Shown here one piece after another: positions 1,845 to 15,431 of a stretch of 64,000 nt of DNA. The stretch is taken from NCBI GenBank assembly GCA_016206785.1, contig JACQQV010000021.1, positions 63,509 through 127,508 on the forward strand, written 5' to 3'. Both the position numbers and the translations under genes were made by a program. Positions within the stretch are counted from its first letter, which is position 1. Each line of letters begins with the position of its first letter. The stretch is from Candidatus Omnitrophota bacterium (GTDB lineage: Bacteria; Omnitrophota; Gorgyraeia; JACQQV01). The notes below the pieces were generated by a model. The model did not search any database. It had not been told where the DNA came from and saw nothing but the letters and a program-made list of their open reading frames with translations.

Positions 1845-2930
1845 TTACGGGGCGGGTCGTCTCAAGCGCTCCTCGGCCAGAGCGAGCGCTTCGTAGTAAG
1901 GAACAGGGGCATCGAAGTTGTCCGCCTCCCCCCATCCATCCCGAGGGCAGCCACGGTAAAGGGGATGAAGACTTTTTCCGTCGGAAGGCTCTTTTTTCGC
2001 ATAAGCATCAAACCAATCAAGAAGGGTGCGCCACCCCTCGTGAACGGTTCCCTTCATTAGATTATACTTAGGGAAAGGAAAACTGACGCAAAAATTCATC
2101 TCCCCATAGGGAGTAATCGCGCAGGAGTTTTGGGCAGCCCGGCAATTCATCCGCCCTTTCCATCGCCTCGGTCCTTCCTCTCCTTTCTCGAGCGGTTTGT
2201 GGTAAACAAGAGGAAGGGGATCTTGAAGAAGTTGAGCCGCTTTGTCAGGATCGAGGCGGTAAACAAGCGGCTCGAGTGAACCGTCCGACTTGGGATGAAT
2301 TACGGTACTGGTTACGGCTCGGATTCCCCACCCCTTGGCCATCGCCTGCATCCTCTCCACTTCCTCAACGTTCACAGTCATGGCAGGAATGATGAGCGTT
2401 ACGGGGATCTTCTTCTTGATCAACCGCTCAATTCCAGAGATACATTTAGAGAAGGAGCCTGGAACAGAGGTCACTCTTTCATAAATCTTCCTTGTCGCTC
2501 CATAAAGTGAGAGGTCGACCTCCAGAGGAAGGAGAGATTGGAGACAATCGGCAATTTCCTCTGTCAGGAAGGTCCCATTTGTTTTCAGGGTAACGGCGAA
2601 TCCCTCCTCTTTAGCGCGAGTCAAAATGTCAAGAAAGTCTCTCCGCGTAAACATCTCTCCGCCTGTCAGGGTTAAAGAAAGGCATCCTTCTGTTCGGAGT
2701 TCTTTAAAAATAGAAATGATTTTCTCCGTCGGCATCTCCTCTTTCTTGGCCCTATGGGTAGGATTATAGCAATGGACGCAGCGGAGATTGCACCCGTAGG
2801 TCAGTTCCATAGTCGCCTCTAAAAGGGTCCGTGAGGATTCTGTTTTGCTAACGACGTTATCCCAAAACTCGATAGGAGAACGCTCCGGGATCGAAGGGGT
2901 TTTAGGATCTAGCGAGGGCATAGGCTTCAT
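1845..2930 (-). CDS. radical SAM/SPASM-domain peptide maturase-like protein (PqqE/MftC-like), 361 aa
   Basis: ORF track. Carries the CxxxCxxC motif LTYGCNLRCVHCYNP and a C-terminal Cys-rich SPASM-like region (CRAAQNSCAITPYGEMNFC). Paralogous to the two rSAM genes at 4040-6087. Confidence 0.8.
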   Translation of the reverse strand: MKPMPSLDPKTPSIPERSPIEFWDNVVSKTESSRTLLEATMELTYGCNLRCVHCYNPTHRAKKEEMPTEKIISIFKELRTEGCLSLTLTGGEMFTRRDFLDILTRAKEEGFAVTLKTNGTFLTEEIADCLQSLLPLEVDLSLYGATRKIYERVTSVPGSFSKCISGIERLIKKKIPVTLIIPAMTVNVEEVERMQAMAKGWGIRAVTSTVIHPKSDGSLEPLVYRLDPDKAAQLLQDPLPLVYHKPLEKGEEGPRRWKGRMNCRAAQNSCAITPYGEMNFCVSFPFPKYNLMKGTVHEGWRTLLDWFDAYAKKEPSDGKSLHPLYRGCPRDGWGEADNFDAPVPYYEALALAEERLRRPAP

Positions 2931-3831
2931 CAGGACGCGCCGCCTCCTTTAGAAAAGAAATAGCGCTTTGTTCTTTCACAAATCCGAATTGATAGCATGG
3001 GACACTCGAAAAAAGCTCTTCACAGAAGGCGAGCGCTTTTTGAATCCGTCCGCCATCCCAGTGTGGGAGGAAAAGTTGTGGGAGAAGAACCTCTGGGAAG
3101 TCTGACAGTGAAAGAGGCTTAAGAGAATTCTGAGAAGCGTGCTGAAGAAAAAAAAGTCCCCTAAGAGGCGCCGATTCTTGAGAGATTCGGAATGTATCCC
3201 CTGGCCACGGAGTTCCATGAAGGAAAAAAGAAGCGCCATCCTTTCGAATAATGACGGTCTCATCGCTCAAGATAGAAACGCCTCCTGTTCCAAGAAACAG
3301 ATGCGCAAGCGTACTCTTTCCCGAGCCAGAAGGACCCACAAAAGCTCTTCCCTCTCCCCCTTCTCGAATCCCAAGTCCATGGACAACGACCCCCTCTCCT
3401 TGACTTAAGAGGTGCACAAGAAGAATCTGCCCTAAGGGCTTCATAAATTCTGTAAAGGGCCAGCGGGGCTTTATCGGCGGAAAGAGTCTATGGAGAGGTC
3501 CAGAAACCCATCCAGGGGCAGCATAGACTTCACCTTCCGAGAAATCTTTCGTAAGGTGAGCAAGGAACTGTCTCTGCTTTGTCTTTGAATGAAAGGTTTC
3601 GATCCAATAATGGCCATCGCTTTCGTAAAGGGCCCAATGGTCTTTCAGTTCAAAAAGGACCCTTTCTTTTAAGAAATCGGGGAAACCGTTCTCGCAATGA
3701 ACCGTCAGATGAACCCTTGGTTTCCCCCGAAGAGGAAAAAGATCGTACCTGAAGGGAAAATCTCGTGGATGAGAATTTTCCCACTCAATGTGAAATCCAA
3801 TTCCTCCGATTTCGAGACTGAAAGAAGGCAT
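2902..3831 (-). CDS. HPr kinase C-domain-like P-loop protein (HprK-related kinase, as found in PqqD/lasso-peptide-kinase contexts), 309 aa
   Basis: The C-terminal half carries VVHGLGIREGGEGRAFVGPSGSGKSTLAH, which resembles the HprK P-loop GxSGxGKS(E/T). There is no N-terminal HPr-kinase regulatory domain. It lies 8 nt downstream of the candidate precursor ORF. Confidence 0.6.
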   Translation of the reverse strand: MPSFSLEIGGIGFHIEWENSHPRDFPFRYDLFPLRGKPRVHLTVHCENGFPDFLKERVLFELKDHWALYESDGHYWIETFHSKTKQRQFLAHLTKDFSEGEVYAAPGWVSGPLHRLFPPIKPRWPFTEFMKPLGQILLVHLLSQGEGVVVHGLGIREGGEGRAFVGPSGSGKSTLAHLFLGTGGVSILSDETVIIRKDGASFFLHGTPWPGDTFRISQESAPLRGLFFLQHASQNSLKPLSLSDFPEVLLPQLFLPHWDGGRIQKALAFCEELFSSVPCYQFGFVKEQSAISFLKEAARPDEAYALARS

Positions 3832-3842
3832 CTAAGGGGTAC

Positions 3843-4034
3843 CTAAGACGAGATCGCGCTGTTTCCCTGCGTTCTACTCCAACTTCGGCATCCATTTGCC
3901 CTACAGGTATTCGTACCGCTGTCAGAAGCAGAGGTCCCATTGGTGGCGCACTGAGAGAGGATCGCCTGTTCATGGTTTAACCGGATTCTAAAAATTTTCG
4001 GTGTTTCATACATCCTTTTCATTGTCTCTTCCAT
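3843..4034 (-). CDS. candidate RiPP precursor peptide, 63 aa (MEETMKRMYETPKIFRIRLNHEQAILSQCATNGTSASDSGTNTCRANGCRSWSRTQGNSAISS)
   Basis: A small ORF wedged between the rSAM gene (ends 4040) and the HprK-like gene (starts 3831). Minus-strand upstream sequence is gataAGAAGGAGGTaaagacaATG, a near-perfect Shine-Dalgarno about 7 nt before the ATG. The peptide has a charged leader-like N-terminus, then a Ser/Thr/Gly/Asn-rich segment with 3 Cys, and ends in Ser-Ser. Confidence 0.45.
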   Translation of the reverse strand: MEETMKRMYETPKIFRIRLNHEQAILSQCATNGTSASDSGTNTCRANGCRSWSRTQGNSAISS

Positions 4035-4039
4035 TGTCT

Positions 4040-5119
4040 TTACCTCCTTCTTATCTTTTCAGCCAAAAGATGCGCTGTCTGACAGAAATGATCGACCGGC
4101 ATCTCACTCTCTCCATTTTCAAAACGTGCCGGAAAAGGCATCTTCCCGCACATCGAATAGACCGTACACTGCCGACAGGGCGAATCGGTTTGATAGGTCA
4201 TTGTACGAATTTTTGGAAAAACTTCTTGGATCGCTTCCTGAAAGGAGTAATGTTTTAATGAAACTCTCGGCTCCCCAATAAAAGTACACGTTCCAAGCTC
4301 TCCCCAAGCCGAAACATGAAACGTATTGGTCCCGCAACCGCAGCGGTAAAGCCGATCGGTCGGCTCATCCGAAATTTCCACACAACGATCCTCGGTATCT
4401 ATGTCCTCGCCATTTATTTCAAGTTCAACAATTTCCTCTGGAGTGAGTCGATAGGCGCAGGGCTTCAAAGAACCATTCAAATCAGGATAGATATCGGTAC
4501 TGAAACGGAACTCCAGCCCGAAACTTTCGACCAGTTCTTTAATCTCATGGAGCCTTCCCCTGTTGAGCGTCATCGCTTTTGTTTTCACCTTGACCGGAAG
4601 TTTCCGTTCCACAAGAAGCCGCAATCCTTCAACAAATCGCTTGAAGGATCCGGGAACCTGAGTCACCGCGTCGAAAACCTCTTCCGTTCCTCCGTGGCAA
4701 CTCGTCTCAATCAAAAAAGGTGGGTCCTTCGCAAGCCGATCCGCAATCTCGGGAGTGATTATGGTGACATTCGTAAAAAGAATGAGAAGAAATCCTTTTT
4801 TCTTTGCATAGTCATAAATATCAAAAAAGTCCTTCCGCATGAAGATTTCGCCACCCGTAAGACAAAGCCAGAGACACCCCGCTTCATGGATTTCATCGAT
4901 CATCCGAAGGACCTCTTCATAAGAAAGCTCTTTTTGAATGTCCTGAGGGTTATTGTGGCAGTCGGTATAGCAGTGGACACAACGGATATTGCATTTATAG
5001 GTAAGTTCGATCTGGCCCCGGATTGGCATCCTTAAGTCATATCCCTTGTCATTGATCGCACTGCTGAAATCATGATACTCTATCTCAGGAATCGTTTCCT
5101 TCATCTTAAGGCCTCTCAC
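4040..5119 (-). CDS. radical SAM/SPASM-domain protein, 359 aa
   Basis: ORF track. Carries IELTYKCNIRCVHCYTD (CxxxCxxC) and SPASM-like C-terminal cysteines (CRQCTVYSMCGKMPF, CGCGTNTFHVSAWGELGTCTF). Confidence 0.8.
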   Translation of the reverse strand: MRGLKMKETIPEIEYHDFSSAINDKGYDLRMPIRGQIELTYKCNIRCVHCYTDCHNNPQDIQKELSYEEVLRMIDEIHEAGCLWLCLTGGEIFMRKDFFDIYDYAKKKGFLLILFTNVTIITPEIADRLAKDPPFLIETSCHGGTEEVFDAVTQVPGSFKRFVEGLRLLVERKLPVKVKTKAMTLNRGRLHEIKELVESFGLEFRFSTDIYPDLNGSLKPCAYRLTPEEIVELEINGEDIDTEDRCVEISDEPTDRLYRCGCGTNTFHVSAWGELGTCTFIGEPRVSLKHYSFQEAIQEVFPKIRTMTYQTDSPCRQCTVYSMCGKMPFPARFENGESEMPVDHFCQTAHLLAEKIRRR

Positions 5120-6087
5120 GGAGTTGAAGAAACCGCTTTGATTGGGATAAATCCGTTCTTCTTGAACATAAACTCCTTTTTAGGAAACCGGCATGGAAAA
5201 TGGGGAAGGTGATTGTAAAATCCATCGTGAAAAGAACCTTTTCGAAGGTCGTAACCCTTCATCCGGTTCCCGGAACAGAGTTGAAGCATCCCATACGCAT
5301 CGATATGAAAATTAAAGAAGCCTGATTCGCATTGGTAGGTTTCTGCCTCTCGTAATTGGATTTCCTTTTCCCGAAGCATCTGCGGATCTTTTTCCTCGAT
5401 CTCTCTCAGTTCTTTTTCAGAAAGTTGATATTCAAAAACATCCTCTGAGCCATCCAGGCGGTTCCGGATCTCCTCGCCAAATTTGAAGGAAACGTTTCCC
5501 AGACCCTTCACAAAAGCCCTGATCTTCAGAATCTCATCCCGATTCACCGTGAGTCCCGTCACCTTCAAAACAAGGTGGAGGTTTCTTTCTAAAAGAAGGT
5601 TGATCGCCCGTAATACTTTCTGAAAAGAGCCTTCTCCCTGCGTCACCTTTTCAAAAATCTCTTTCGATGTGGCATGAAGACTGATCTCGACGGAAAAAGG
5701 AGGATTTTCTTTCAGAAAATCGGAAACCTCCTCGGTAATCAAGGACCCATTGGTAAAAAGGGTGATTAAAAATCCCTTGTCCTTGGCAACCTTATAGATC
5801 TGGAAAAAATCTTTTCGCATAAAGATTTCGCCACCCGTCAAGGTAAGCCAAAGACATCCTCCTTTATGAAGTTCACCTAAGATCCGTAGGACTTCCTCAG
5901 TTTGAAGTTCTTTGGGAAAATATTGAGGATGATTATAGACATCTGTGTAGCAATGGATACAGTGAAGATTGCAGCGGCAAGTCAATTCCCATTGTCCGAT
6001 AAGAGGGAGTCTTCCCCTCTCACTCTTTGCGACGAGCCGCTTGAAAAACTCACGATCCGTAACAGAAGAAAGAAAATCGCATGCCAC
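5116..6087 (-). CDS. radical SAM/SPASM-domain protein, 323 aa
   Basis: ORF track. Carries WELTCRCNLHCIHCYTD (CxxxCxxC) and C-terminal Cys residues (CESGFFNFHIDAYGMLQLCSGNRMKGYD). It overlaps the downstream paralogue by 4 nt, which suggests translational coupling. Confidence 0.8.
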   Translation of the reverse strand: MACDFLSSVTDREFFKRLVAKSERGRLPLIGQWELTCRCNLHCIHCYTDVYNHPQYFPKELQTEEVLRILGELHKGGCLWLTLTGGEIFMRKDFFQIYKVAKDKGFLITLFTNGSLITEEVSDFLKENPPFSVEISLHATSKEIFEKVTQGEGSFQKVLRAINLLLERNLHLVLKVTGLTVNRDEILKIRAFVKGLGNVSFKFGEEIRNRLDGSEDVFEYQLSEKELREIEEKDPQMLREKEIQLREAETYQCESGFFNFHIDAYGMLQLCSGNRMKGYDLRKGSFHDGFYNHLPHFPCRFPKKEFMFKKNGFIPIKAVSSTP

Positions 6088-6092
6088 CCGCT

Positions 6093-6395
6093 CTATTCTC
6101 CCTTTTCCGCACCCGCAAAATGTTTCGGCTCTATGAGTCCTTCCCTCCTCAGTTTTTTAAGGAAGGAAAGCACATCATGCTTCACCCTTTTGGGTTCTGC
6201 TTCGAAGTTTTGTTCAATGTGTGTGATAAGTTCCTGAACGGTTCTACTCCCGTCCAACGCCTCCCAGATCGCTGCGCCAACAGGAGTGAGTTTGAGGAGG
6301 TCTCCCTCATCCTGATCCACGAGGATCGCTTCTTCCTCTACCCGTCGCCAAGGAATTCTTCCATTCTTCTCGAAGATATCCGTAAGTCTAAACAT
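6093..6395 (-). CDS. PqqD-family (RRE-like) small protein, 100 aa
   Basis: MFRLTDIFEKNGRIPWRRVEEEAILVDQDEGDLLKLTPVGAAIWEALDGSRTVQELITHIEQNFEAEP... matches the PqqD/RRE pattern: P..R..GE..L......L.N..A..IW.L.DG..T..E. Confidence 0.65.
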   Translation of the reverse strand: MFRLTDIFEKNGRIPWRRVEEEAILVDQDEGDLLKLTPVGAAIWEALDGSRTVQELITHIEQNFEAEPKRVKHDVLSFLKKLRREGLIEPKHFAGAEKGE

Positions 6396-7947
6396 GAAAA
6401 TGGATGAGGCGTAAAAAATAATTTTTTGTCTCTAGCCAAAGAAGAAAAAGGATTTTCCTTGCTTCTCTTCCCATTTTGTAGGTGAGGCCCTCACGAAAAT
6501 AGATCCAAAAAAGACGGAGATGTAGAAGTAAGGGATGGAAACCGAGACGCGCCGCTTCAAGTAGGTTCTCTTTTGCCAGACGAGACTCTTTTTTCTTGAG
6601 AAAGGCGGAACCGATCCAGAATTTCAGAATCGCCTCCGGCCCTTTGAGTTCGAGCGACTTCCGGAAAGCACTCAGGGCTCTATCCCACTCTCCCTGCTCG
6701 AAAAAAAGAGACCCTATCCCATAATAAGCCGTGGCCAGTCTGGGATTCTTCGAAAGGGCCTCTTCATAATAAAAGAGCGCCTGGGAAAAATCTTTCTCCG
6801 CCCTAAATGTATGGCCCAAACCGCAGAGTGCATGGGCGTGATTCGGGTCGAGGGTAAGAATCTTTTTGTACTCTTCCTCTGCCTTTTTCCATTGACCAAG
6901 ATTCTGATAGGCCGGTCCAAAATTGTTGTAGGCGGTGGCGTAGGTGGGATCCGCGGAAACCGCTTCTCGATAAAGTCGGGAGGCCTCTGTTTTCTCTCCC
7001 CTTTTTAGAAAGAGCAAAGAAAGATTGTAAAAGCTTGCAGCATCTTTTGGATTGACCCCAAGGGCCTTTCGATACTCCAAAATCGTCTCCTCCACCTTCC
7101 CCTCCTCTTCAAAGGCTTGTGCAGATCTTTTGTGATGATAAGCATCGTTTGGAGCGGAGGGGTCTCGGATAAGTTGTGCAAGGGCGTCTCCAAAATATTT
7201 ATAAGGAAGTGGAGTAAATCCCCCCTCGACAGAATAGGCAATCGTGACACAATCACTCCGGATACCCTTTGATCGCAAGGCGTCGACAACATTCTCTGGG
7301 AAGAGCCACGGTTTCTTACAGCGAGGGTCTTCATCCCCATGTTCTAAAAACCCTGAGATGAGGAAATCGGTATCAATATCAAGAAGAACCTCTTCTTCAA
7401 TAGTGGGAAGGTTCTGAAGAGTGCAGACAATCAATGGAAAGCCATAAAGTGTTGCCTGAGCCTTTGTTCCCTCAATACGGATATCGGTAAACGCTTCTGG
7501 ATGGTTTCTCCGAAATTCTCGAAAGATATAACCCATCTCTTTTTCCCAAGAAACCCCTCGGGGGGCTTCCGGGGTCGCCCAATAAAAAGCCCGAAGAAGG
7601 CCCTGCCGGAGAGCAGGGCAGATATAATTTCCGATATGGACGAAGGACTCTGTCCCTCGATCTGTGAAGTTCCAAAAGATCTTTTGTTGGGTAAGCGCTT
7701 CTAATTCTTGAGGAGAGGAGATACTGAGGAGATCGGAGAAGGACCTCTCAGGAATCCAATTGAAGTCGATGTGGGCATCGATATGGAGGAGGATGCGGTT
7801 TGAAAAGTTCCCTCTCTGCCAGGCCCAGAGGGCCTCATCATGATCTTCCATCAGGGTGACGGCAGGGAGAGGATCAATTCCTACCCGATCGTCTTGGGGA
7901 GTTGAAGACCTTCTTAAAGAAGGTTGGGTCGCTAACGCGTCGGTCAC
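6388..7947 (-). CDS. fusion protein: N-terminal UPF0489-like domain (putative metal-dependent hydrolase fold) plus C-terminal TPR repeats, 519 aa
   Basis: The N-terminus carries MEDHDEALWAW...ILLHIDAHIDFNW, which resembles the EDHHEVL...HFDSHPD signature I associate with UPF0489. The C-terminus carries at least 6 TPR-like repeats (AYNNFGPAYQNLGQWKKAEEEYKKILTLDPNHAHALCGLGHTF...). Confidence 0.6.
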   Translation of the reverse strand: MTDALATQPSLRRSSTPQDDRVGIDPLPAVTLMEDHDEALWAWQRGNFSNRILLHIDAHIDFNWIPERSFSDLLSISSPQELEALTQQKIFWNFTDRGTESFVHIGNYICPALRQGLLRAFYWATPEAPRGVSWEKEMGYIFREFRRNHPEAFTDIRIEGTKAQATLYGFPLIVCTLQNLPTIEEEVLLDIDTDFLISGFLEHGDEDPRCKKPWLFPENVVDALRSKGIRSDCVTIAYSVEGGFTPLPYKYFGDALAQLIRDPSAPNDAYHHKRSAQAFEEEGKVEETILEYRKALGVNPKDAASFYNLSLLFLKRGEKTEASRLYREAVSADPTYATAYNNFGPAYQNLGQWKKAEEEYKKILTLDPNHAHALCGLGHTFRAEKDFSQALFYYEEALSKNPRLATAYYGIGSLFFEQGEWDRALSAFRKSLELKGPEAILKFWIGSAFLKKKESRLAKENLLEAARLGFHPLLLHLRLFWIYFREGLTYKMGREARKILFLLWLETKNYFLRLIHFHV

Positions 7948-7950
7948 CGA

Positions 7951-8235
7951 TTATTTCTCTCGGATGATTCCGGTTTCCTTAAATTGCGCCAGAAGCCCCA
8001 AAAGATCTTTCTCTGCAACGTGAGGATCTATCTCAAATTCGGAGATAACCGTCTCGCAGACCTCTCGGACCGATTTCTTTCCATCAATCAGTTCCCAAAT
8101 CCTCGCCCCTACCTCATTCAACGTGAAGATGGCAGGTTCTTCCCCTAAGGTTTGACGAATAGGGACAAGGACCGTTTCTTCCGCGATTTTCCTTGATACA
8201 ATATTGGGAGATTTTTCGTAACTTGTTTCTAGCAC
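7951..8235 (-). CDS. PqqD-family (RRE-like) small protein, 94 aa
   Basis: ...PNIVSRKIAEETVLVPIRQTLGEEPAIFTLNEVGARIWELIDGKKSVREVCETV... fits the PqqD pattern. This is the second stand-alone copy in the locus. Confidence 0.65.
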   Translation of the reverse strand: MLETSYEKSPNIVSRKIAEETVLVPIRQTLGEEPAIFTLNEVGARIWELIDGKKSVREVCETVISEFEIDPHVAEKDLLGLLAQFKETGIIREK

Positions 8236-8278: not shown

Positions 8279-9085
8279 TCAAGGTTTTTGTGGGGTGAGA
8301 ATCGCATTGCAGTTGCTGAAATCCATCTCCACAACTTTAAAGTTCGAGTTCTCTATCTCACTCAAAAGCTCCGAGGGTTTGCTGAAAATGTGCCAATAGT
8401 GACCCATAAAGCAGACGTCTCCTTCTTCTAGCTCCCGATTGCCGCCAGAAAGGATTGCAAGCCACTTTTTGAGCCGGAACTTCCAACCCTTTTCCCGGAA
8501 ATCATCTCTACCACAAAACTCTAGATAAAAAAATCCGTCGTCTTTGAGATGAGATCGCATCTTTCTTAAAAAGGCGATCCGCCTTGTGCGGGTAGGAATT
8601 TCGCTATACATCGACTGGCTCAGAAAAAGCGCGTCATGCTTTCTTGCCGGTGATAAACTATCAAGTACATTTCCCACTTCAAAGTGGCAATTTTTTAAGG
8701 AAAGGGCACGGACATGTTCTTTTGCTCTTTCTACAAGATCCTGGGAGGTCTCGATTCCCGTAACCTCAAATCCTAATTTCGCCAAGGCGAGGGATTCCCG
8801 ACCACCGCCAGACATCAGTACAAGACACTCCTTTTTTCCTTTTAAATATTTTGTCACAAATTGAGATTCTTCTGGGCTCAGTCCCCTCGTTCGTACCGCT
8901 TCCCCCGCCAAAGCCTCTGAAAAGTCCCTCCGATTATAAAACTGTTCAACAAATTTTTCGAGATCTTTAGGTTTTGAGAGAACTAGTACAAGTGACCCAA
9001 AGGCTGAAGAAATCTTTTCCTGAAAACGATTCAAGAGAAGGTCGATGCGCACCAAAACGGAAACAAGGAAAAACCGAGCACTCAT
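8279..9085 (-). CDS. class I SAM-dependent methyltransferase, 268 aa
   Basis: Carries the motif I-like segment CLVLMSGGGRESLALAKLGFEVTGIETSQDLVERAKEH, and DALFL/post-I motifs. Confidence 0.65.
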   Translation of the reverse strand: MSARFFLVSVLVRIDLLLNRFQEKISSAFGSLVLVLSKPKDLEKFVEQFYNRRDFSEALAGEAVRTRGLSPEESQFVTKYLKGKKECLVLMSGGGRESLALAKLGFEVTGIETSQDLVERAKEHVRALSLKNCHFEVGNVLDSLSPARKHDALFLSQSMYSEIPTRTRRIAFLRKMRSHLKDDGFFYLEFCGRDDFREKGWKFRLKKWLAILSGGNRELEEGDVCFMGHYWHIFSKPSELLSEIENSNFKVVEMDFSNCNAILTPQKP

Positions 9086-10161
9086 CTATTTTTTAAGAGG
9101 GGTTCAATGACTTCTACCAAGGCTTGGGCAGCGAGTCGATGACCACGTTCATTGAGATGAAACGGGTCTCCTTTTCTATAAAGTTTTTCTCTCAGGTGAC
9201 GTTGTAAACTTTCCCGGATATCGATCAGCGGAACCTGCAAGTTGTGCGAAATGCGTCGGAAACGATAAAAGGAGGGACGGATTTTTAAGATCCCCAGCTC
9301 GTGAAGATCCGGAAAATAGGCAAACAACACTTGAGCGTGAGAGCGACGTGCTAACTGAACCAGCTCGCGCAACCGTTGTTCCGCCTCCTGCCAGTAGCGC
9401 GCCTCCCGAGATCCTGTTGCGTTGTAAGAGACCTGAAGCGCCCAAAAAGAAATAACGGAACCGATGCGCTGATCCAAAAATTTCAATAAGAAACTGTGGG
9501 GCAGCAAGGAAGAGTAGAAATTGTGAAAAGGCGACGATGGAGAAGAAACCTCGGGTTCCGGTAAAAGACAAAGCCTCCCTTGATCATCGACGTTAAAGAG
9601 GGATGGGTAAATGTCGTTCCTATAGAAATTAACAATAACAATATCCGGTCTCAAAAGAGGAAGGAGTTCCTTAAAGATACGAACTTCCTGTTCAGTATTA
9701 TAATTATCAGAGGCGGCATTGAATACAATAGGAGGATTACGTGGAAATTTTTCCTTGAGTAACACTTCAAGTCTTTTACAAAAAGTTGTCTCAAAAGGAA
9801 CCCCGTAGCCAAATGTGATAGAGTCTCCCAAACAGAGGACGACATCGTCTTTTTCTTTCACCTTCGGCCATTCCGGTCCCCGCCAACCCTGTGTATTGAT
9901 TTCATACCATGCCCCTTGCCAGCGAATGCGTGCTCCTCGTCGATACCGGTGGACGACCTCAGGATCTGCGACAAAAAGACCGGGAATGTCGGACATGAAA
10001 AGATAAGGGTCTGGCGCATTTTCCGGCAAGGCCTTGATCACCTCCGCTTCCGGCATACGACGAGAGACAAAAACAAACCGATAAAATCGGAGGATCCCTT
10101 CTGCCGCCAAGCAAGCGAGGCACAAGCCGACTACCACAAGAAAAAATCGTGTACGAGTCAC
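9082..10161 (-). CDS. SGNH/GDSL-family hydrolase with N-terminal signal/TM segment, 359 aa
   Basis: Carries VVLCLGDSITFGYGV (the GDSx block). The N-terminus MTRTRFFLVVVGLCLACLAAEG is hydrophobic. The start codon, by my reading of the sequence, is GTG (cac 10159-10161). Confidence 0.65.
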   Translation of the reverse strand: MTRTRFFLVVVGLCLACLAAEGILRFYRFVFVSRRMPEAEVIKALPENAPDPYLFMSDIPGLFVADPEVVHRYRRGARIRWQGAWYEINTQGWRGPEWPKVKEKDDVVLCLGDSITFGYGVPFETTFCKRLEVLLKEKFPRNPPIVFNAASDNYNTEQEVRIFKELLPLLRPDIVIVNFYRNDIYPSLFNVDDQGRLCLLPEPEVSSPSSPFHNFYSSLLPHSFLLKFLDQRIGSVISFWALQVSYNATGSREARYWQEAEQRLRELVQLARRSHAQVLFAYFPDLHELGILKIRPSFYRFRRISHNLQVPLIDIRESLQRHLREKLYRKGDPFHLNERGHRLAAQALVEVIEPLLKNR

Positions 10162-10230: not shown

Positions 10231-12126
10231 ATGGTAGAAACAGTGAAGCCTATTGGTGTTTTAACCGATCTTCTTCAAATAACGGACATTCCAGAGATTA
10301 TCGATCTTTTGATCGCGTCCAAGAAGGCCCGTTTCACCATTGAAGGCTTCAGCATGTACCCCACCCTCCGAGTAGGAGACATCGTTGAGGTGGACCCCCT
10401 AACAAAAGAAACGCTTGAAGTAGGAGACCTTGTTGTTTTTCAAAAAGAAAAGAAACTCATCTGTCACCGCCTGGTAGAGATTTTTGAGAAAAACGGGGAG
10501 GCGTGGATTAAGACAAAGGGGGATACGGTCGAGGAGAGTGACACCCCACTCGCCCTTCGTCAGATCCTGGGAAAGGTGACGCGCATTGAGCGAGACGGAA
10601 TTCCTCGGATCCCCTCGGCCGTTCCTCAAAAACTTTCCTTTGCAGAAATCATCTTCTTCTCTGCCTATCGGCAATTCGGGGGAAAACTCAGACCGAAACT
10701 GAGAACAGTTTTCTTACGCAGTCTCTCTTCTCTTTTATTCCGCCGCGTGTATCGCTTCCTGTTCCGTCCCGATGTGATTTATTCTGTCAGAATTCCAACT
10801 GCTTCGACTCCTGATCCGAAATTCTGGCGGTCTGTTCAAAGTCTCCCGGGGGCGAATGAGTCTTTACAGGACGCTTCGGTCTATCGCTTTTTTGCAAAGG
10901 TAGGCAAAAATGTCGTTGGAAGTCTTGAGGTGCGGACTCTCGATAAAACCGCTTCGCAATGGAGGGTTTCCCATCTTTTCGTGAGGGCAAGGTACCGGGG
11001 GTGCCACGTTGCAACAACACTCCTGAGAAGATCGTTTCAGAGGCTCAGACGACAAGGAGCCTCCTTATTAAGCATAGAAGTGGGTCCTCAAAATCGTCCC
11101 GCACTTTCCCTTCTAAAACAACTAGGCTTCGACGACGCCGTACAAAAAGATCCTTTCGTCCTTCAGAAAGACCTTTCGTTCCCGCTCAAGCGCTTAAGAG
11201 GCGAAAAAGAACTGCAACCGTTTCTTTATCACGCTCTTCCCTCTGATACGCTCAAAGAAAGCTTCCTCAGGAGCGTCGCAAAACACCTCTTCTTCGAACA
11301 GGCCCTTCTTGAGATAGACACCGTTTTCAAAAATGCGGGAATACCTTTTATCGTACAGAAGGGAATGGCACTTGCGTATACCCTTTACCCCGACCCTGCG
11401 ACGCGACCGATGGTGGATATCGATCTGTATCTACGTAAAAACGATGTCCCCTCGGCCATATCCCTTTTAGAAGGACTCGGCTATGAACTGGGAGCAGCCA
11501 AGTTTCGAGAAGAACTGATCACCTTCGGGGGAGAGCTCAGCTTCCACAAAAAAAATGCCCCTTTTGTTGAACTCCACTGGTGCCTTGAACAGTATGAGCG
11601 ATTGAAAGGAATTGTAAAAGTTGACGAGGAAGACCTGTGGAAAAGGACTGTCTCCTATACGATTTCAGGAAGAAAATTTCTGACCCTCTGTTCAGAGCAT
11701 CAACTGCTCGCGCTTTCCATCCACCTCGGTCTCATTCATCGGTTTCGTGGCTCTCTCAAGTGGTTTCTGGACATCGATCAGTTCGTCATGAAATTCGGGG
11801 AGGACCTGGATTGGGAGGAACTTTTTCAAACCGCACGGCGATGGGGAATTGAACGGGTGTTTTGCCAAGTGCTCCTTGCAACCCAGGAGCTCTTCAACAC
11901 CCCCCTTCCTCCTCTTCCGATTCAAAATTCTTCATTCTTCCTGAGACATCCCATCTTTCAATGGTTCCTCCCAGATCGTCCCTCCGACCGCCTCCGGGTC
12001 CTCTTCCGGATCTTCTTCCCGAGCCGGGAATGGCTCATCTACCGATATCGCCTCAAACGGCGCGACCTCATCCCCTTCCACCGCTTCCTCCATCCTCTCT
12101 TTGTTCTTATCGGCAAGACAAGGTAG
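10231..12126 (+). CDS. tri-domain protein: N-terminal S24/S26-type peptidase-like domain, central GNAT acetyltransferase, C-terminal nucleotidyltransferase-like (NTP_transf_5-type) domain, 631 aa
   Basis: The N-terminus carries EGFSMYPTLRVGDIVEVD...DLVVFQKEKKLICHRLVEIF...KTKGDTV (compare signal-peptidase/LexA G-S-M-x-P-T-L...GD motifs). The central region ...SLEVRTL...VRARYRGCHVATTLLRRSFQRLRRQGASLLSIEVGPQN is GNAT-like. I assign the C-terminal region to uncharacterised nucleotidyltransferases. The upstream RBS is GAGAAGGatg. Confidence 0.6.
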   Translation: MVETVKPIGVLTDLLQITDIPEIIDLLIASKKARFTIEGFSMYPTLRVGDIVEVDPLTKETLEVGDLVVFQKEKKLICHRLVEIFEKNGEAWIKTKGDTVEESDTPLALRQILGKVTRIERDGIPRIPSAVPQKLSFAEIIFFSAYRQFGGKLRPKLRTVFLRSLSSLLFRRVYRFLFRPDVIYSVRIPTASTPDPKFWRSVQSLPGANESLQDASVYRFFAKVGKNVVGSLEVRTLDKTASQWRVSHLFVRARYRGCHVATTLLRRSFQRLRRQGASLLSIEVGPQNRPALSLLKQLGFDDAVQKDPFVLQKDLSFPLKRLRGEKELQPFLYHALPSDTLKESFLRSVAKHLFFEQALLEIDTVFKNAGIPFIVQKGMALAYTLYPDPATRPMVDIDLYLRKNDVPSAISLLEGLGYELGAAKFREELITFGGELSFHKKNAPFVELHWCLEQYERLKGIVKVDEEDLWKRTVSYTISGRKFLTLCSEHQLLALSIHLGLIHRFRGSLKWFLDIDQFVMKFGEDLDWEELFQTARRWGIERVFCQVLLATQELFNTPLPPLPIQNSSFFLRHPIFQWFLPDRPSDRLRVLFRIFFPSREWLIYRYRLKRRDLIPFHRFLHPLFVLIGKTR

Positions 12127-12350: not shown

Positions 12351-13206
12351 TCAGACGCGGACCCAGCGAATTCCTTTTTCCTTGCGGAACCAAGTCTCCT
12401 GACGTTTGGCGTATTGGCGGGTTAAGCGTTGAATATGGGTAATAGCCTCTTCGAGGGAAGATTCCCCTTTGAGGTAAGAGAAAAGTTCTTGAAGCCCGAT
12501 GATTCTTTTTGCAGTAAAACTCAGTCTCTTCCGGAGAAGCCTCTTAACTTCCGCAACAACATCATTGCGAATCATCTTTTCCACCCGACGATCGATCCTC
12601 TGATAAAGAACTTTTCGGGGGTGGCGTAATCCGATTTTCTGAATCCGAAACAAAGCTGAGAACCCACCTCCCCCCTCTGCGAACTCCGAGGGTTTTCTCC
12701 CGGTGACTTCGTAAATCTCAAGGGCGCGAATCAGACGATAGGTATCGTTGGGATGAATCTTTTTTGCCCGACGGGGATCGATCGCACGTAATCTTTCGTA
12801 CAAATAAGCGTTTCCCTTCTCCTTCACAAGCCTTGAATATTTTTTCCGAATCGTGGGATCGGCTTTGACGGGAGCGTGCTTTCCTCCCAAAAGGGCCTTG
12901 AGATAAAAACCGCTCCCCCCCACAAGGATTGGCACCTTTCTTCGGCGTGCAATGTCTTGAATAACACTTTTTGCGCGTTGGGAAAATTCAGCCGCGCTAA
13001 ATTCCTTATGTAGAGGGAGAAAACCGATAAGATGATGGGGAATTTTCTTTTGATCCTCTGGGAGGGGTTGGTTGGTGAGGATTGGAACGCCTCGGTACAC
13101 CTGCATGGCGTCGCAGGAGATAATTTCACCTTTGCATCGTTTCGCCAGGCGGAGGGCAAGCCGGCTTTTCCCGCTGGCGGTAGGGCCAACAATGACAATA
13201 AGTTTT
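12351..13206 (-). CDS. miaA: tRNA dimethylallyltransferase MiaA
   Basis: LIVIVGPTASGKSRLALRLAK...ISCDAMQVYRGVPILTNQP... The track ORF extends to 13298 and overlaps the upstream ATPase gene. The likely true start is a GTG (VKKLIVIVGPTASGKS) at about 13206. Confidence 0.85.
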
Positions 13207-13207
13207 T

Positions 13208-14023
13208 TCACCTCGCTTCCTGAACAACTTCCTGGATGGTCTGCTCGTCGATGGAAGTGGCTTTTTTGCCCAATCCTGAGAGAAGGGACAGATTGCATAA
13301 AGTATTGATCTTCCTCGGAATGCCTCCGCTATGTTCGTAGATGAGCTGGATCGCATCGTCCGTAAAGATCGGGTCCTCTCGACCGGCGGTCGTAAGCCGG
13401 GTCTGGATATAATGGCGCGTCTGCTCTTCGTCCAAACCCTCCAGATGGCATTTGATCTCGATCCGCTGCGAAAAGGGCTTGAATCGGTTCACATGTTCCC
13501 TCAACTCAGGTTGGCCGAACAAAAGGAGGGTCAGTAAAAACTGGTCGTTTGACTGAAAGTTGAGGAGGAGCCGCAATCCCTCCAGCACAGAAGGATCTTC
13601 GATCACATGGGCCTCATCCACAATAATGACCGTCTCGCTCCCATCCTTCAAATTATCGTAAAGGATATCCTTCAGCTCATTGAGGAGAAATGTCGCCACA
13701 AGATCCGATTTCTTCGTCGGGAGGTTCTTTCCGCCCCCTAATGCTTGAACGATTGCAGCCAGAAGTTCAATGTAATCCAGTTTTGGATTCCGGATGAAGG
13801 CGATCTTATATTTCTCTCCAACCAGCCCTTTCAACAGGGCTTCCCCCAATAACGTCTTTCCACATCCAAAGATCCCTGTCAACATGGCTGCCCCCACCTT
13901 CTCTTGGACGGCATACAAGAGCCTTGAAAGGGCTTCGTCATGTTGGGGGGAGGCGTAGAAGAATCGGGGATCGGGAGTATTTTGAAAGGGCATGAGATTG
14001 AATTTCCAATATTCTTTATACAT
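13208..14023 (-). CDS. ExeA/MshM-like AAA ATPase (putative secretion ATPase of PEP-CTERM loci), 271 aa
   Basis: Walker A is LTGIFGCGKT and Walker B is VIIVDEAH. The gene lies next to the PEP-CTERM/exosortase locus. Confidence 0.7.
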   Translation of the reverse strand: MYKEYWKFNLMPFQNTPDPRFFYASPQHDEALSRLLYAVQEKVGAAMLTGIFGCGKTLLGEALLKGLVGEKYKIAFIRNPKLDYIELLAAIVQALGGGKNLPTKKSDLVATFLLNELKDILYDNLKDGSETVIIVDEAHVIEDPSVLEGLRLLLNFQSNDQFLLTLLLFGQPELREHVNRFKPFSQRIEIKCHLEGLDEEQTRHYIQTRLTTAGREDPIFTDDAIQLIYEHSGGIPRKINTLCNLSLLSGLGKKATSIDEQTIQEVVQEAR

Positions 14024-14032
14024 GTTCAGACT

Positions 14033-14458
14033 TCAATTCAACATAATCTTTTCGTCTTTTTCGTTATAGGTAAACCGAGGTTTGCCATTCACCTTATGCA
14101 CCTCGGCGTCCGTCACGTTGAGGGTCCCATCCGGCGAAACCGTCACCCAAAAATCGACATCGAGGGCTTCCCCGGTCGTCTGGTCCACAAAATCGGCACA
14201 GGAGAAATAACCATCCTTGGTGGATAGTTTTCCGACCCGCTCATGGACCCGTTGAAAGGTGAGTTTTCTCTCTTGGCCTGTTTTATCGTCATGGATCGGG
14301 AAAAAGCCGCCGTTCTTATGGGTCACTTCCAAGGCATACGTCTGCATCGCCGTCCGGATTTCCTCATGGGTCGGCTCTACAGCATAAAGCTTCGTTCCAG
14401 CGAATGCCACAACGCCTGCGATGACCGCATATAAAAGAAGACGACTGTCGCCTTTCAT
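14033..14458 (-). CDS. hypothetical secreted/periplasmic protein, 141 aa
   Basis: ORF track. The N-terminal signal-like segment is MKGDSRLLLYAVIAGVVAFAG. No recognisable family. Confidence 0.45.
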   Translation of the reverse strand: MKGDSRLLLYAVIAGVVAFAGTKLYAVEPTHEEIRTAMQTYALEVTHKNGGFFPIHDDKTGQERKLTFQRVHERVGKLSTKDGYFSCADFVDQTTGEALDVDFWVTVSPDGTLNVTDAEVHKVNGKPRFTYNEKDEKIMLN

Positions 14459-14459
14459 C

Positions 14460-15431
14460 CTACACCTCCTTTTGTTTTGCGTGAACGTCTCTAAATTGAA
14501 ACTCTGTTTCTACCCTTTGAAAAGGTTTCCCGTCCAACTCGACATACGGATAGAAAAAAATATTGACCGGCTCGCCCTTCTGTTTTGGAACCAGTTGGAT
14601 ATTACGCCCTGTACTGATGAGAAGACGGTTTGCATCATAAGTTCCGAAGTAATACTCCCGCTTCTCTGGGTATTTCCATGCTTCCGAGGCATCCACGGAA
14701 ATCCACCCCTTTCCGTCGACATAAAACTCGGCCCAGCAGTGATACCCTGGAATTTTACCCTCTGATTCCTGTTCAGGGATAGGGATCCCGATTTTAAAAC
14801 GCGAGGGAATTTTACTCGCCCGCGCCAAGGAGATAAAGAGCGAATGAAAATCGGTGCAGTTCCCTTTGCCGACAAGACAGGCTCGCGCCGTATCCCCATT
14901 TCCCCATCCCGGTGTCGTCTTGTCATACTGCATATGGGAAAGGACGTAGTCATAAATGGCCCTTCCCTGTTCTAAAGGAAACACCTTCCCTTGGGTTACT
15001 TCTTTGGACAACCCCTGAATTCTTTCATCCACCACCATCCATTGGCCCGAGCCGAGGTGGAGACGTCTTTGAAAGGGGGTCTCCTGCAAGGGGTTTCTTC
15101 TTTCCTCTACAGTCACATGGTAGGTAATGGCAACGTCGATCTTTTGGGGAAGTGGCGGCTTCAGAAAAAGATGGAGGATCTCATTGCCATAGCGAGGTTC
15201 CTGAAAGATTTGATAAGGGGAAGAGGCGACGATTTTTCGGTCCAGGATCCTCTGGTTGGCCTCTGTGCGTGCCAAAGGGATCCAGATCCGGATCTGTTTT
15301 GCGTCGGGGGGAATTTCCTGAATCAAGGCATGGTAAGTGAGCTCAAACTCCCGCTCTGATTCTCGGGCTTCACTTTTTGAATCACTCAATATCAATAATG
15401 GGGTTACAATAAGTACTATCCATTTCCTCAT
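14460..15431 (-). CDS. transglutaminase-like cysteine protease domain protein with signal peptide
   Basis: Carries GKGNCTDFHSLFISLARASKIPSRF...GYHCWAEFYVDGKGWISVDASE, the Cys-His-Asp transglutaminase core. The likely start is MRKWIVLIVTPLLILS at about 15431, preceded by a GAGGAG RBS. The track ORF is over-extended to 15524. Confidence 0.75.
   Translation of the reverse strand: MRKWIVLIVTPLLILSDSKSEARESEREFELTYHALIQEIPPDAKQIRIWIPLARTEANQRILDRKIVASSPYQIFQEPRYGNEILHLFLKPPLPQKIDVAITYHVTVEERRNPLQETPFQRRLHLGSGQWMVVDERIQGLSKEVTQGKVFPLEQGRAIYDYVLSHMQYDKTTPGWGNGDTARACLVGKGNCTDFHSLFISLARASKIPSRFKIGIPIPEQESEGKIPGYHCWAEFYVDGKGWISVDASEAWKYPEKREYYFGTYDANRLLISTGRNIQLVPKQKGEPVNIFFYPYVELDGKPFQRVETEFQFRDVHAKQKEV

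Follow-up and report, generated by a model that had tools for sequence, protein, structure and literature searches.

Family PF12640 (UPF0489) comprises peptide arginases, which convert arginine to ornithine in the precursors of RiPPs, peptides that are made by the ribosome and modified after translation. OspR, the peptide arginase of landornamide, was described in 2020 and its structure in 2023, FlmR and OhkR followed in 2025, and the motifs of these enzymes are EEH(N/H)EAF, DXHXD and LDIDLDYFSC (PMC12703449, PMC10028609). In OspR, one manganese ion (MnA) is bound by His12 and Asp43 and the other (MnB) by His41 and Asp167, with Asp39 and Asp165 as bridging ligands; Glu11 is the proposed stabiliser of the guanidinium group, and Ile73 and Ser264 replace His141 and Glu277 of human arginase-1 (PMC10028609). 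PbsE is a PF12640 arginase containing tetratricopeptide repeats (TPR), with predicted ligands His10, Asp31, His33, Asp35, Asp165 and Asp167, and has been found to make L-ornithine in vivo and, with Mn, in vitro (PMC12257519), while BipC has explicitly been assigned to 'the UPF0489 superfamily' (PMC12707348). About ten peptide arginases have been characterised and the field calls them rare; they are valued as tools that place ornithine, which is non-proteinogenic and typical of nonribosomal antibiotics, in ribosomal peptides. Here we analyse a gene for a PF12640-TPR fusion protein (arginase-TPR) in a stretch of 64,000 nucleotides from Candidatus Omnitrophota bacterium (contig JACQQV010000021.1, positions 63,509 to 127,508), hereafter the window. 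The protein is best filed as a member of the peptide arginase family in a TPR-bearing architecture with one characterised precedent, PbsE. We consider it very probable that, as a PF12640 ureohydrolase, it has catalytic competence and works in a RiPP pathway; that it would make ornithine from arginine residues of the precursor core we judge to have a probability of about 65%. What is new here is the size and taxonomic spread of the TPR-fused branch, its conserved association with genes for PqqD, HprK-like and NTP_transf_5 proteins, its occurrence in lasso peptide clusters and the covariation of two active-site positions.

Fold, family and active site

An earlier sequence-only reading of the window assigned the N-terminal segment of the protein to UPF0489, and this assignment holds. 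In Pfam, the full protein matches PF12640 at residues 30-127 with 27.7 bits against a gathering cut-off of 27, a marginal pass in which the aligned profile positions are only 1-83 of 167; the N-terminal domain alone scores 29.3 bits, and 30 of its 32 homologues also match. With the single sequence, a search of the PDB gave one match only, to the peptide arginase OspR (8BRP, E = 0.023). A profile built from 32 N-terminal domains matched OspR with E = 2.6e-12 and all three metal motifs aligned, and hhalign comparison with 26 canonical peptide arginases, OhkR and FlmR included, gave 99.4% probability (E = 1.7e-21, 213 columns). The domain has the ureohydrolase alpha/beta/alpha fold and is closest to OspR. 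The NCBIfam model 'peptide arginase, FlmR/OhkR family' (NF052474) gives the protein 32.9 bits where 350 are required, which places it outside that curated family. The same reading had called the domain a putative arginase/deacetylase-like metal hydrolase of a family with no established function. Its arginase part is borne out by the homology to OspR, and its deacetylase part is not: the protein has no Pfam match to PF00491 (arginase/agmatinase) or to histone deacetylases (HDAC), and neither a Hist_deacetyl match nor closest structural similarity to HDAC/acetylpolyamine amidohydrolases was found. As to function, the statement is outdated, since PF12640 now includes characterised peptide arginases. 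Pfam labels already call the family 'FlmR_OhkR_N' and also include a new ScmC family, PF27840.

The alignment with OspR extends to the metal centre. OspR His12, Asp39, His41, Asp43, Asp165 and Asp167 align to H36, D57, H59, D61, D190 and D192 here, and OspR Glu11, Ile73 and Ser264 to D35, I105 and S239. In the family alignment of 32 homologues (28-67% identical to the query, with column identity averaging 42%), H55, D57, H59, N107, D190, D192, D194 and S239 are invariant, while at least 94% of sequences share H36, D61 and I105 and at least 90% share E34; for the six equivalents of the OspR metal ligands, conservation is complete or at least 97%. At the positions of His141 and Glu277 the protein has I105 and S239, unlike arginases acting on free arginine. 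Conventional arginases and agmatinases (PF00491) are marked by GGDHS and SXDXDXXDP motifs and by His141 as proton shuttle, and the protein does not fall among them. The residues that had suggested the family in the first place, EDHDEAL (residues 34-40) and LLHIDAHIDFNW (residues 52-63), are no chance resemblance either, given the invariance of H55, D57, H59, D190, D192 and D194 across the 32 homologues.

Position 35, the equivalent of Glu11, varies within the branch, and it does so together with position 241 (nucleotides 7843-7845 and 7225-7227, respectively). The pairs observed are D/N (27), N/E (24), D/E (14) and N/N (2) (Fisher p = 2e-6), and of the 70 sequences with a score at both sites, 67 keep at least one carboxylate at 35/241; the window protein has one at each (D35 and E241). 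Part of this pattern may stem from common descent; in the lasso clade most pairs are N/E. The covariation could explain how a guanidinium group is bound without the Glu11 of OspR.

The C-terminal part of the protein is a TPR domain, to which TPR_1, TPR_2, TPR_8 and TPR_11 of Pfam match over residues about 253-470 (E about 1e-22 to 1e-25). The AlphaFold2 model of the full-length protein has a predicted local distance difference test score (pLDDT) of 87.5 and a predicted TM score of 0.84, and the TPR domain is mostly above pLDDT 90. It contains 15 helices between residues 268 and 516, the pairs starting near residues 268, 303, 337, 371, 405, 439 and 473, so that the 'at least 6' repeats counted earlier become seven helix pairs with a 34-residue period. 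By analogy, the domain most likely holds the precursor or the complex of PqqD with the leader.

Distribution, gene neighbourhoods and precursor peptides

Initial homologue searches returned 40 clusters, mostly of 410-480 aa with TPR. Some ten fall below this length (214-391 aa), and a good many of those lie on short contigs or have no recorded contig. The nearest homologue, 67% identical, comes from a metagenome-assembled genome (MAG) of Candidatus Omnitrophota. In an exhaustive profile search of 1.84 billion cluster representatives, 1532 matches were obtained at E <= 1e-3 and 362 at E <= 1e-30, and the best 150 are nearly all 450-550 aa long. The 362 matches are clusters at 50% identity and thus a lower bound for the branch, which is large beside the 104 clusters, at 90% identity, of canonical peptide arginases. 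Scanning species-representative genomes yielded 80 loci, every one of them in a MAG or a single-amplified genome. Omnitrophota dominate; further loci belong to Nitrospirota, Methylomirabilota, 'Deltaproteobacteria', Acidobacteriota, Planctomycetota, Aminicenantes, Elusimicrobiota, Melainabacteria, Saganbacteria, Schekmanbacteria, Verrucomicrobiota, Chloroflexota and Kiritimatiellae, and the branch is present in at least 15 phylum-level lineages, many of them uncultivated. Fusion is the rule, 76 of 79 genomic homologues being at least 400 aa long. Public records name these homologues only 'tetratricopeptide repeat protein', 'PilF', 'TadD' or hypothetical, which is of note for genome annotation.

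To describe the neighbourhoods, open reading frames (ORFs) were called per locus and searched with hidden Markov models (HMMs) iterated from the window proteins; counts refer to the 39 loci with at least 8 kb on either side. PqqD, ScmC/HprK-like and NTP_transf_5 genes are each present in 34 of them (87%), radical S-adenosylmethionine (rSAM) and S24 peptidase genes each in 22, GNAT genes in 10 and methyltransferase genes in 3. The conserved core is therefore PqqD, arginase-TPR, HprK-like and NTP_transf_5, and not rSAM; of the partners that the sequence-only reading had named for a co-occurrence check, PqqD and HprK-like genes recur in most loci and rSAM genes in 22 of 39. A PqqD gene immediately follows arginase-TPR in 31 of 75 loci. 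An unusual expansion of PqqD domains was seen in a Melainabacteria MAG (L039, 11461-16300), where the stretch directly downstream of arginase-TPR holds a tandem array of five ORFs (about 310-325 aa), all of which match the PqqD HMM.

The branch occurs in two RiPP classes, rSAM/SPASM clusters and lasso peptide clusters. The latter account for loci without rSAM genes. In locus L043 (7838-16788), arginase-TPR lies with genes for a B1 PqqD protein, a B2 protease (81 bits with NF033537, cut-off 33) and a lasso cyclase-like asparagine synthetase homologue (best match NF033535, 362 bits, under the curated cut-off of 525), and a classical lasso precursor is encoded directly upstream of the HprK-like gene. 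Further lasso clusters with arginase-TPR, together with HprK-like and NTP_transf_5 genes, are found at L014, L025, L027, L031, L033, L044, L049, L060 and L076. Ten classical lasso precursors were recovered across loci (e.g. ...AYHPPQVMDYGNVKQITMATGRNGNTDTGGWTGRNKTAA), and all ten have arginine in the core; those beside arginase-TPR genes are mostly not Ser-terminated. A 2022 review of lasso peptide modification describes how HPrK-like kinases phosphorylate Ser at the C-terminus and how a nucleotidyltransferase homologue adds further decoration, and has neither ornithine nor a TPR enzyme among the modifications it lists (PMC9266682). The presence of arginase-TPR in these clusters predicts lasso peptides that contain ornithine.

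Precursors of the rSAM class form a family of their own, to which no Pfam or NCBIfam model matched. The candidate precursor of the window, a peptide of 63 aa (3843-4034) and the only window ORF matching the precursor HMM, has homologues at the same position in other loci. It consists of a leader (...YETPKIFRIRLNHEQAIL) and a core (SQCATNGTSASDSGTNTCRANGCRSWSRTQGNSAISS) with three Arg, three Cys and a C-terminal Ser, the arginines being R45, R50 and R54 in ...TCRANGCRSWSR.... Other members are encoded at L001 (3780-3962), in L003/L085 (four genes, 12769-15036) and by about 58 more ORFs in L005-L084, and a leader scan of metagenomes gave at least 600 pattern matches with at least 228 confirmed relatives. 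The leaders are conserved (...KP.I..VKLNPEQAVL..C); the cores, of 15-76 aa, are hypervariable, with Cys, Ser, Thr, Gly and Arg abundant. The last residue is Ser in 45 of 53 precursors and Thr in 6.

Every one of the 64 distinct rSAM-class cores that are linked with arginase-TPR contains arginine. Among the matches listed, six related clusters (L095, L101, L106, L115, L117 and L121) have a precursor, PqqD, rSAM and ScmC and no arginase-TPR gene within 7-20 kb; arginase therefore appears to be an optional tailoring gene of this rSAM RiPP class, with the proviso that absence from a contig does not equal absence from the genome. Precursors with the same leader also occur as orphans, sometimes paired, with no maturase gene in up to 20 kb per locus (L112, L127, L144, L147 and L154). 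Arginine density is 7.7% in linked cores versus 3.8% in arginase-less clusters and 1.2% in orphans, again among the matches listed; one of the 11 arginase-less cores and three of the 7 orphan cores have no Arg. The enrichment is significant per core (Mann-Whitney p = 0.0017) and on density (Fisher p = 8e-4), and lysine shows the opposite trend (2.6% in linked cores versus 4.4%). Arginase-less clusters might have been expected to lack arginine altogether; at 3.8% Arg they do not, and the association is only quantitative. To this limited extent, the enrichment supports arginine as the substrate.

Cys-Arg dipeptides are also in excess in the cores (38 observed versus 18.8 expected). A general Cys-Arg target motif was considered and rejected: without one Arg-rich subfamily the counts are 18 versus 13.3 (P = 0.11). 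The enrichment resides mainly in that subfamily, which has the pattern CRS....R.NP.R...CRACRTTYRSS. The reverse dipeptide, Arg-Cys, is depleted in the cores of L005-L163 and the window (3843-3947), with 7 observed versus 18.5 expected, or 5 versus 13.2 without the Arg-rich subfamily.

In the window, the operon runs on the minus strand in the order SGNH hydrolase, methyltransferase, PqqD, arginase-TPR, PqqD, two rSAM genes, the 63-aa ORF, the HprK-like/ScmC-like gene and a third rSAM gene (Table 1). The placement of arginase-TPR between two PqqD genes (both PF05402, E about 1e-18), given from the letters alone, proved exact. Its GTG start lies 4 nt past the stop of the upstream PqqD gene and its 3' end overlaps the start of the downstream one by 8 nt. 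This start is preferred over an internal ATG at residue 33 because residues 22-32 (VGIDPLPAVTL) form the first beta strand and are conserved among homologues. The HprK-like protein has a Walker A motif, GPSGSGKST, and its homologue in L003 is labelled PF27840 ScmC; a GDSL gene also lies near the L003 cluster.

Divergent from the operon, one 631-aa protein combines an S24/S26-type peptidase with GNAT and NTP_transf_5 parts. In selidamides, other RiPPs, a GNAT enzyme acylates ornithine made by an arginase; a GNAT gene accompanies arginase-TPR in only 10 of 39 loci. At the other end, the part of the window adjoining the last rSAM gene (1-1845) has no ORF matching any family, and positions 1-2000 show a strong A-over-T skew (0.21). 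No RNA family of Rfam was found in the whole window.

Table 1. Coordinates of the arginase-TPR gene, its domains and motifs, and neighbouring genes in the window
Feature	Position	Strand	Evidence or remark
Arginase-TPR gene, PF12640 (peptide arginase-like) and TPR fusion, 519 aa	6388..7947	-	ORF; Pfam and NCBIfam matches
Catalytic ureohydrolase-fold domain, about residues 23-262	7162..7881	-	
Motif 1, E34-D35-H36 (H36 = OspR His12, D35 = OspR Glu11)	7840..7848	-	Alignments
Motif 2, D57-A-H59-I-D61 (DXHXD; OspR Asp39/His41/Asp43)	7765..7779	-	D57 and H59 invariant; D61 in 31/32
Motif 3, D190-I-D192-T-D194 (OspR Asp165/Asp167 in DIDLD)	7366..7380	-	Three Asp invariant; aligned to OspR ILDIDIDYF
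S239-V-E241 (S239 = OspR Ser264, Glu277 position of human arginase-1)	7225..7233	-	S239 invariant
TPR domain (residues 268-516), seven helix pairs of 34 residues each; a long capping helix ends the last	6400..7146	-	Pfam and AlphaFold2
Upstream PqqD-family gene, RiPP recognition element (RRE)/chaperone	7951..8235	-	PF05402, E = 3.5e-18
Downstream PqqD-family gene	6093..6395	-	PF05402, E = 7.5e-19
Radical SAM maturase 1	5116..6087	-	PF04055, E = 1.9e-25; best NCBIfam matches are SPASM-type families
Radical SAM/SPASM-type maturase 2	4040..5119	-	PF04055, E = 2e-20; mycofactocin-maturase model aligns to residues 28-340
Candidate precursor peptide, 63 aa	3843..4034	-	Precursor HMM, E = 6e-21
HprK-related/ScmC-like P-loop protein (putative peptide kinase)	2902..3831	-	Weak NCBIfam matches to ScmC, HprK_rel_A and HprK_rel_B
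Radical SAM maturase 3	1845..2930	-	PF04055, E = 2.5e-24
SAM-dependent methyltransferase, accessory, not conserved with the family	8279..9085	-	Methyltransf_25 and Methyltransf_31; 3/39 loci
SGNH/GDSL hydrolase, first gene of the operon	9082..10161	-	PF13472, E = 1.3e-12
S24 peptidase-GNAT acetyltransferase-NTP_transf_5 fusion, divergent from the operon	10231..12126	+	Pfam

Competing readings and a proposed pathway

Several observations weigh against conversion of core arginine to ornithine by arginase-TPR. For every member of the TPR-fused branch this chemistry is a prediction. The Pfam score is borderline (27.7 versus 27) and the FlmR/OhkR model of NCBIfam falls far short (32.9 bits versus 350). 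At the position of Glu11, invariant in the 26 canonical peptide arginases, 81 distinct genomic homologues have Asp 43 times, Asn 31 times and Glu once (EDH, ENH and EEH, respectively). The insert Ser170-Ser234 of OspR (~60 aa), through which the enzyme forms a homodimer with a central cleft thought to bind the precursor, is absent in the window branch; in the hhalign alignment, ~60 residues are missing from the window family after DIDTDF. The closest architectural precedent, PbsE, was compared by its published description and ligand spacing, and the role of the TPR domain is proposed by analogy. Finally, the arginine association is not independent of phylogeny and has a small negative set of 11 cores, and arginine occurs in arginase-less clusters too.

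The alternative that survives best, though we hold it to be unlikely, keeps an active binuclear-metal ureohydrolase and changes its substrate: either an arginine already modified by the pathway (Cys-cross-linked as for KgrD, or with modified flanks as for PbsE) or some other guanidino or amidino group. The Asp or Asn found family-wide at the Glu11 equivalent, co-varying with position 241, suggests a rearranged guanidinium pocket, and both PbsE and KgrD need pre-modified substrates. The window itself looks suitable, with two Cys-Arg dipeptides in the core and rSAM enzymes and a methyltransferase in the operon, as in the enteropeptin pathway. However, the overall Cys-Arg excess loses its significance without one subfamily, such dipeptides occur in only 23 of 64 cores, the methyltransferase is as rare as the counts above indicate, and lasso-type clusters carry the same enzyme without rSAM or Cys.

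Very unlikely, in our view, is a non-catalytic scaffold or chaperone, in which the TPR repeats and an inactive arginase-like domain would hold the precursor or assemble the maturation complex. 'Substrate handling' of this kind had been suggested by the sequence-only reading, and TPR domains are indeed generic binders of proteins and peptides, the gene lies between two genes for PqqD chaperones and the Pfam score is borderline. Yet the metal ligands are invariant or nearly so, and the second-shell residues N107, S239 and T245 invariant, among homologues of 28-67% identity from at least 15 phylum-level lineages; such conservation is not expected of a pseudoenzyme, and this reading is rejected for that reason. 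Hardly credible is a housekeeping enzyme for free arginine, agmatine or acetylated polyamine that entered the operon by coincidence: the fold is common to arginases, agmatinases and acetylpolyamine amidohydrolases, but the lack of PF00491 and HDAC matches in Pfam, the replacement of His141/Glu277 by Ile/Ser as in OspR, the translational coupling of the gene within its operon and a RiPP neighbourhood conserved across phyla and two RiPP classes lead us to reject deacetylase and free-arginine arginase alike.

For the arginine-to-ornithine reading we infer the following pathway, in which the chemistry, the dependence on Mn, the order of steps and the role of the TPR domain are all provisional. The arginase-TPR enzyme would be cytoplasmic and hold a binuclear metal centre, presumably of Mn2+, by H36, D57, H59, D61, D190 and D192. 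A metal-bridged hydroxide would attack the guanidinium carbon of a core arginine, with urea leaving and ornithine staying in the peptide (-42.02 Da per site), and D35 and/or E241 may take over the role of Glu11. In the window, the predicted substrate is the 63-aa peptide, at R45, R50 and R54. The TPR domain would replace the dimerisation insert and cleft of OspR and thereby let core arginines reach the shallow active site. The three rSAM enzymes would work alongside, probably introducing cross-links at Cys; since PbsE and KgrD both require pre-modified substrates, dependence of the arginase step on prior cross-linking is, by analogy, a real possibility. The HprK-like kinase and the NTP_transf_5 enzyme probably act on the conserved C-terminal Ser, and the S24 peptidase probably removes the leader.

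The branch is linked to two RiPP classes, rSAM/SPASM and lasso, for which ornithine has not been reported. A tentative extension, to which we give somewhat poor odds, is that it serves as a portable 'ornithine module' for unrelated RiPP scaffolds, where docking of the TPR domain on the complex of PqqD (RRE) and leader replaces the homodimer cleft of OspR. If so, the first ornithine-containing lasso peptides are to be predicted, and with them, from Omnitrophota, Nitrospirota and related lineages, a large undescribed family of peptides that bear ornithine, rSAM cross-links and a decorated C-terminus. More radically, the change of Glu11 to Asp or Asn with its compensating position 241 may mark chemistry beyond simple conversion of arginine to ornithine.

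Comparison with known systems

Canonical peptide arginases differ from the window protein in architecture, motifs and substrates. OspR, FlmR and OhkR are stand-alone enzymes, and all 104 clusters collected with an OspR query are TPR-less and nearly all 270-325 aa, none being longer; no protein like PbsE was among them. Their motif EEH(N/H)EAF has a second Glu (Glu11) where the window protein reads E-D-H-D-E-A-L, and the YFSC continuation of canonical LDIDLDYFSC is absent from LDIDTDFLIS here. Canonical precursors are of the NHLP, Nif11, SCIFF or DD(I/V)LF types, whereas those of the TPR-fused branch have the PEQAVL leader or are of lasso type. Given the failure of the NF052474 model and the lack of both Glu11 and the dimerisation insert, arginase-TPR is therefore not to be classed as an orthologue of OspR, FlmR or OhkR.

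KgrD of the enteropeptin pathway is an arginase in an rSAM RiPP pathway, in which cross-linking of the Cys beside the target Arg comes first and the ornithine formed is then methylated. The window operon resembles it in having rSAM enzymes, an arginase-fold enzyme, a methyltransferase and Cys-Arg dipeptides. KgrD belongs to the conventional arginase family (PF00491) and is 15.8% identical to OspR, so that the likeness, weakly supported, is one of pathway logic only.

Another parallel concerns the partner genes and not arginase-TPR itself. The HPrK-like kinases PadeK, ThcoK and PsmK of lasso pathways, together with the nucleotidyltransferase homologue PsmN, are like the HprK-related and NTP_transf_5 proteins that most consistently accompany arginase-TPR, and the C-terminal Ser of rSAM-class precursors matches the Ser that these kinases phosphorylate. 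The trio of HprK-like protein, NTP_transf_5 and C-terminal Ser mirrors the lasso systems of paeninodin and pseudomycoidin, whose kinase attaches one or several phosphates to the C-terminal Ser and whose nucleotidyltransferase homologue attaches hexoses.

The nearest counterparts are PbsE and BipC, described as TPR-containing arginases of the UPF0489 superfamily with EEHxE, DxHxD and DIDLD motifs. Their pathway, that of biphenomycin, known from Actinomycetota and Bacillota, uses MNIO enzymes (oxidative enzymes that depend on multinuclear non-heme iron), B12-dependent rSAM enzymes and precursors with an FHAFRF motif. No MNIO or B12-rSAM match was obtained in the window operon with Pfam or NCBIfam, which instead has PqqD, SPASM-type rSAM, ScmC and a precursor with a PEQAIL leader; BipC also keeps EEH, as opposed to E(D/N)H in the window family. 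The spacing of the metal ligands is, however, nearly the same in PbsE (21 and 130) and the window protein (21 and 129) and differs in OspR (27 and 122), which suggests that PbsE is architecturally closer to the window branch than OspR is.

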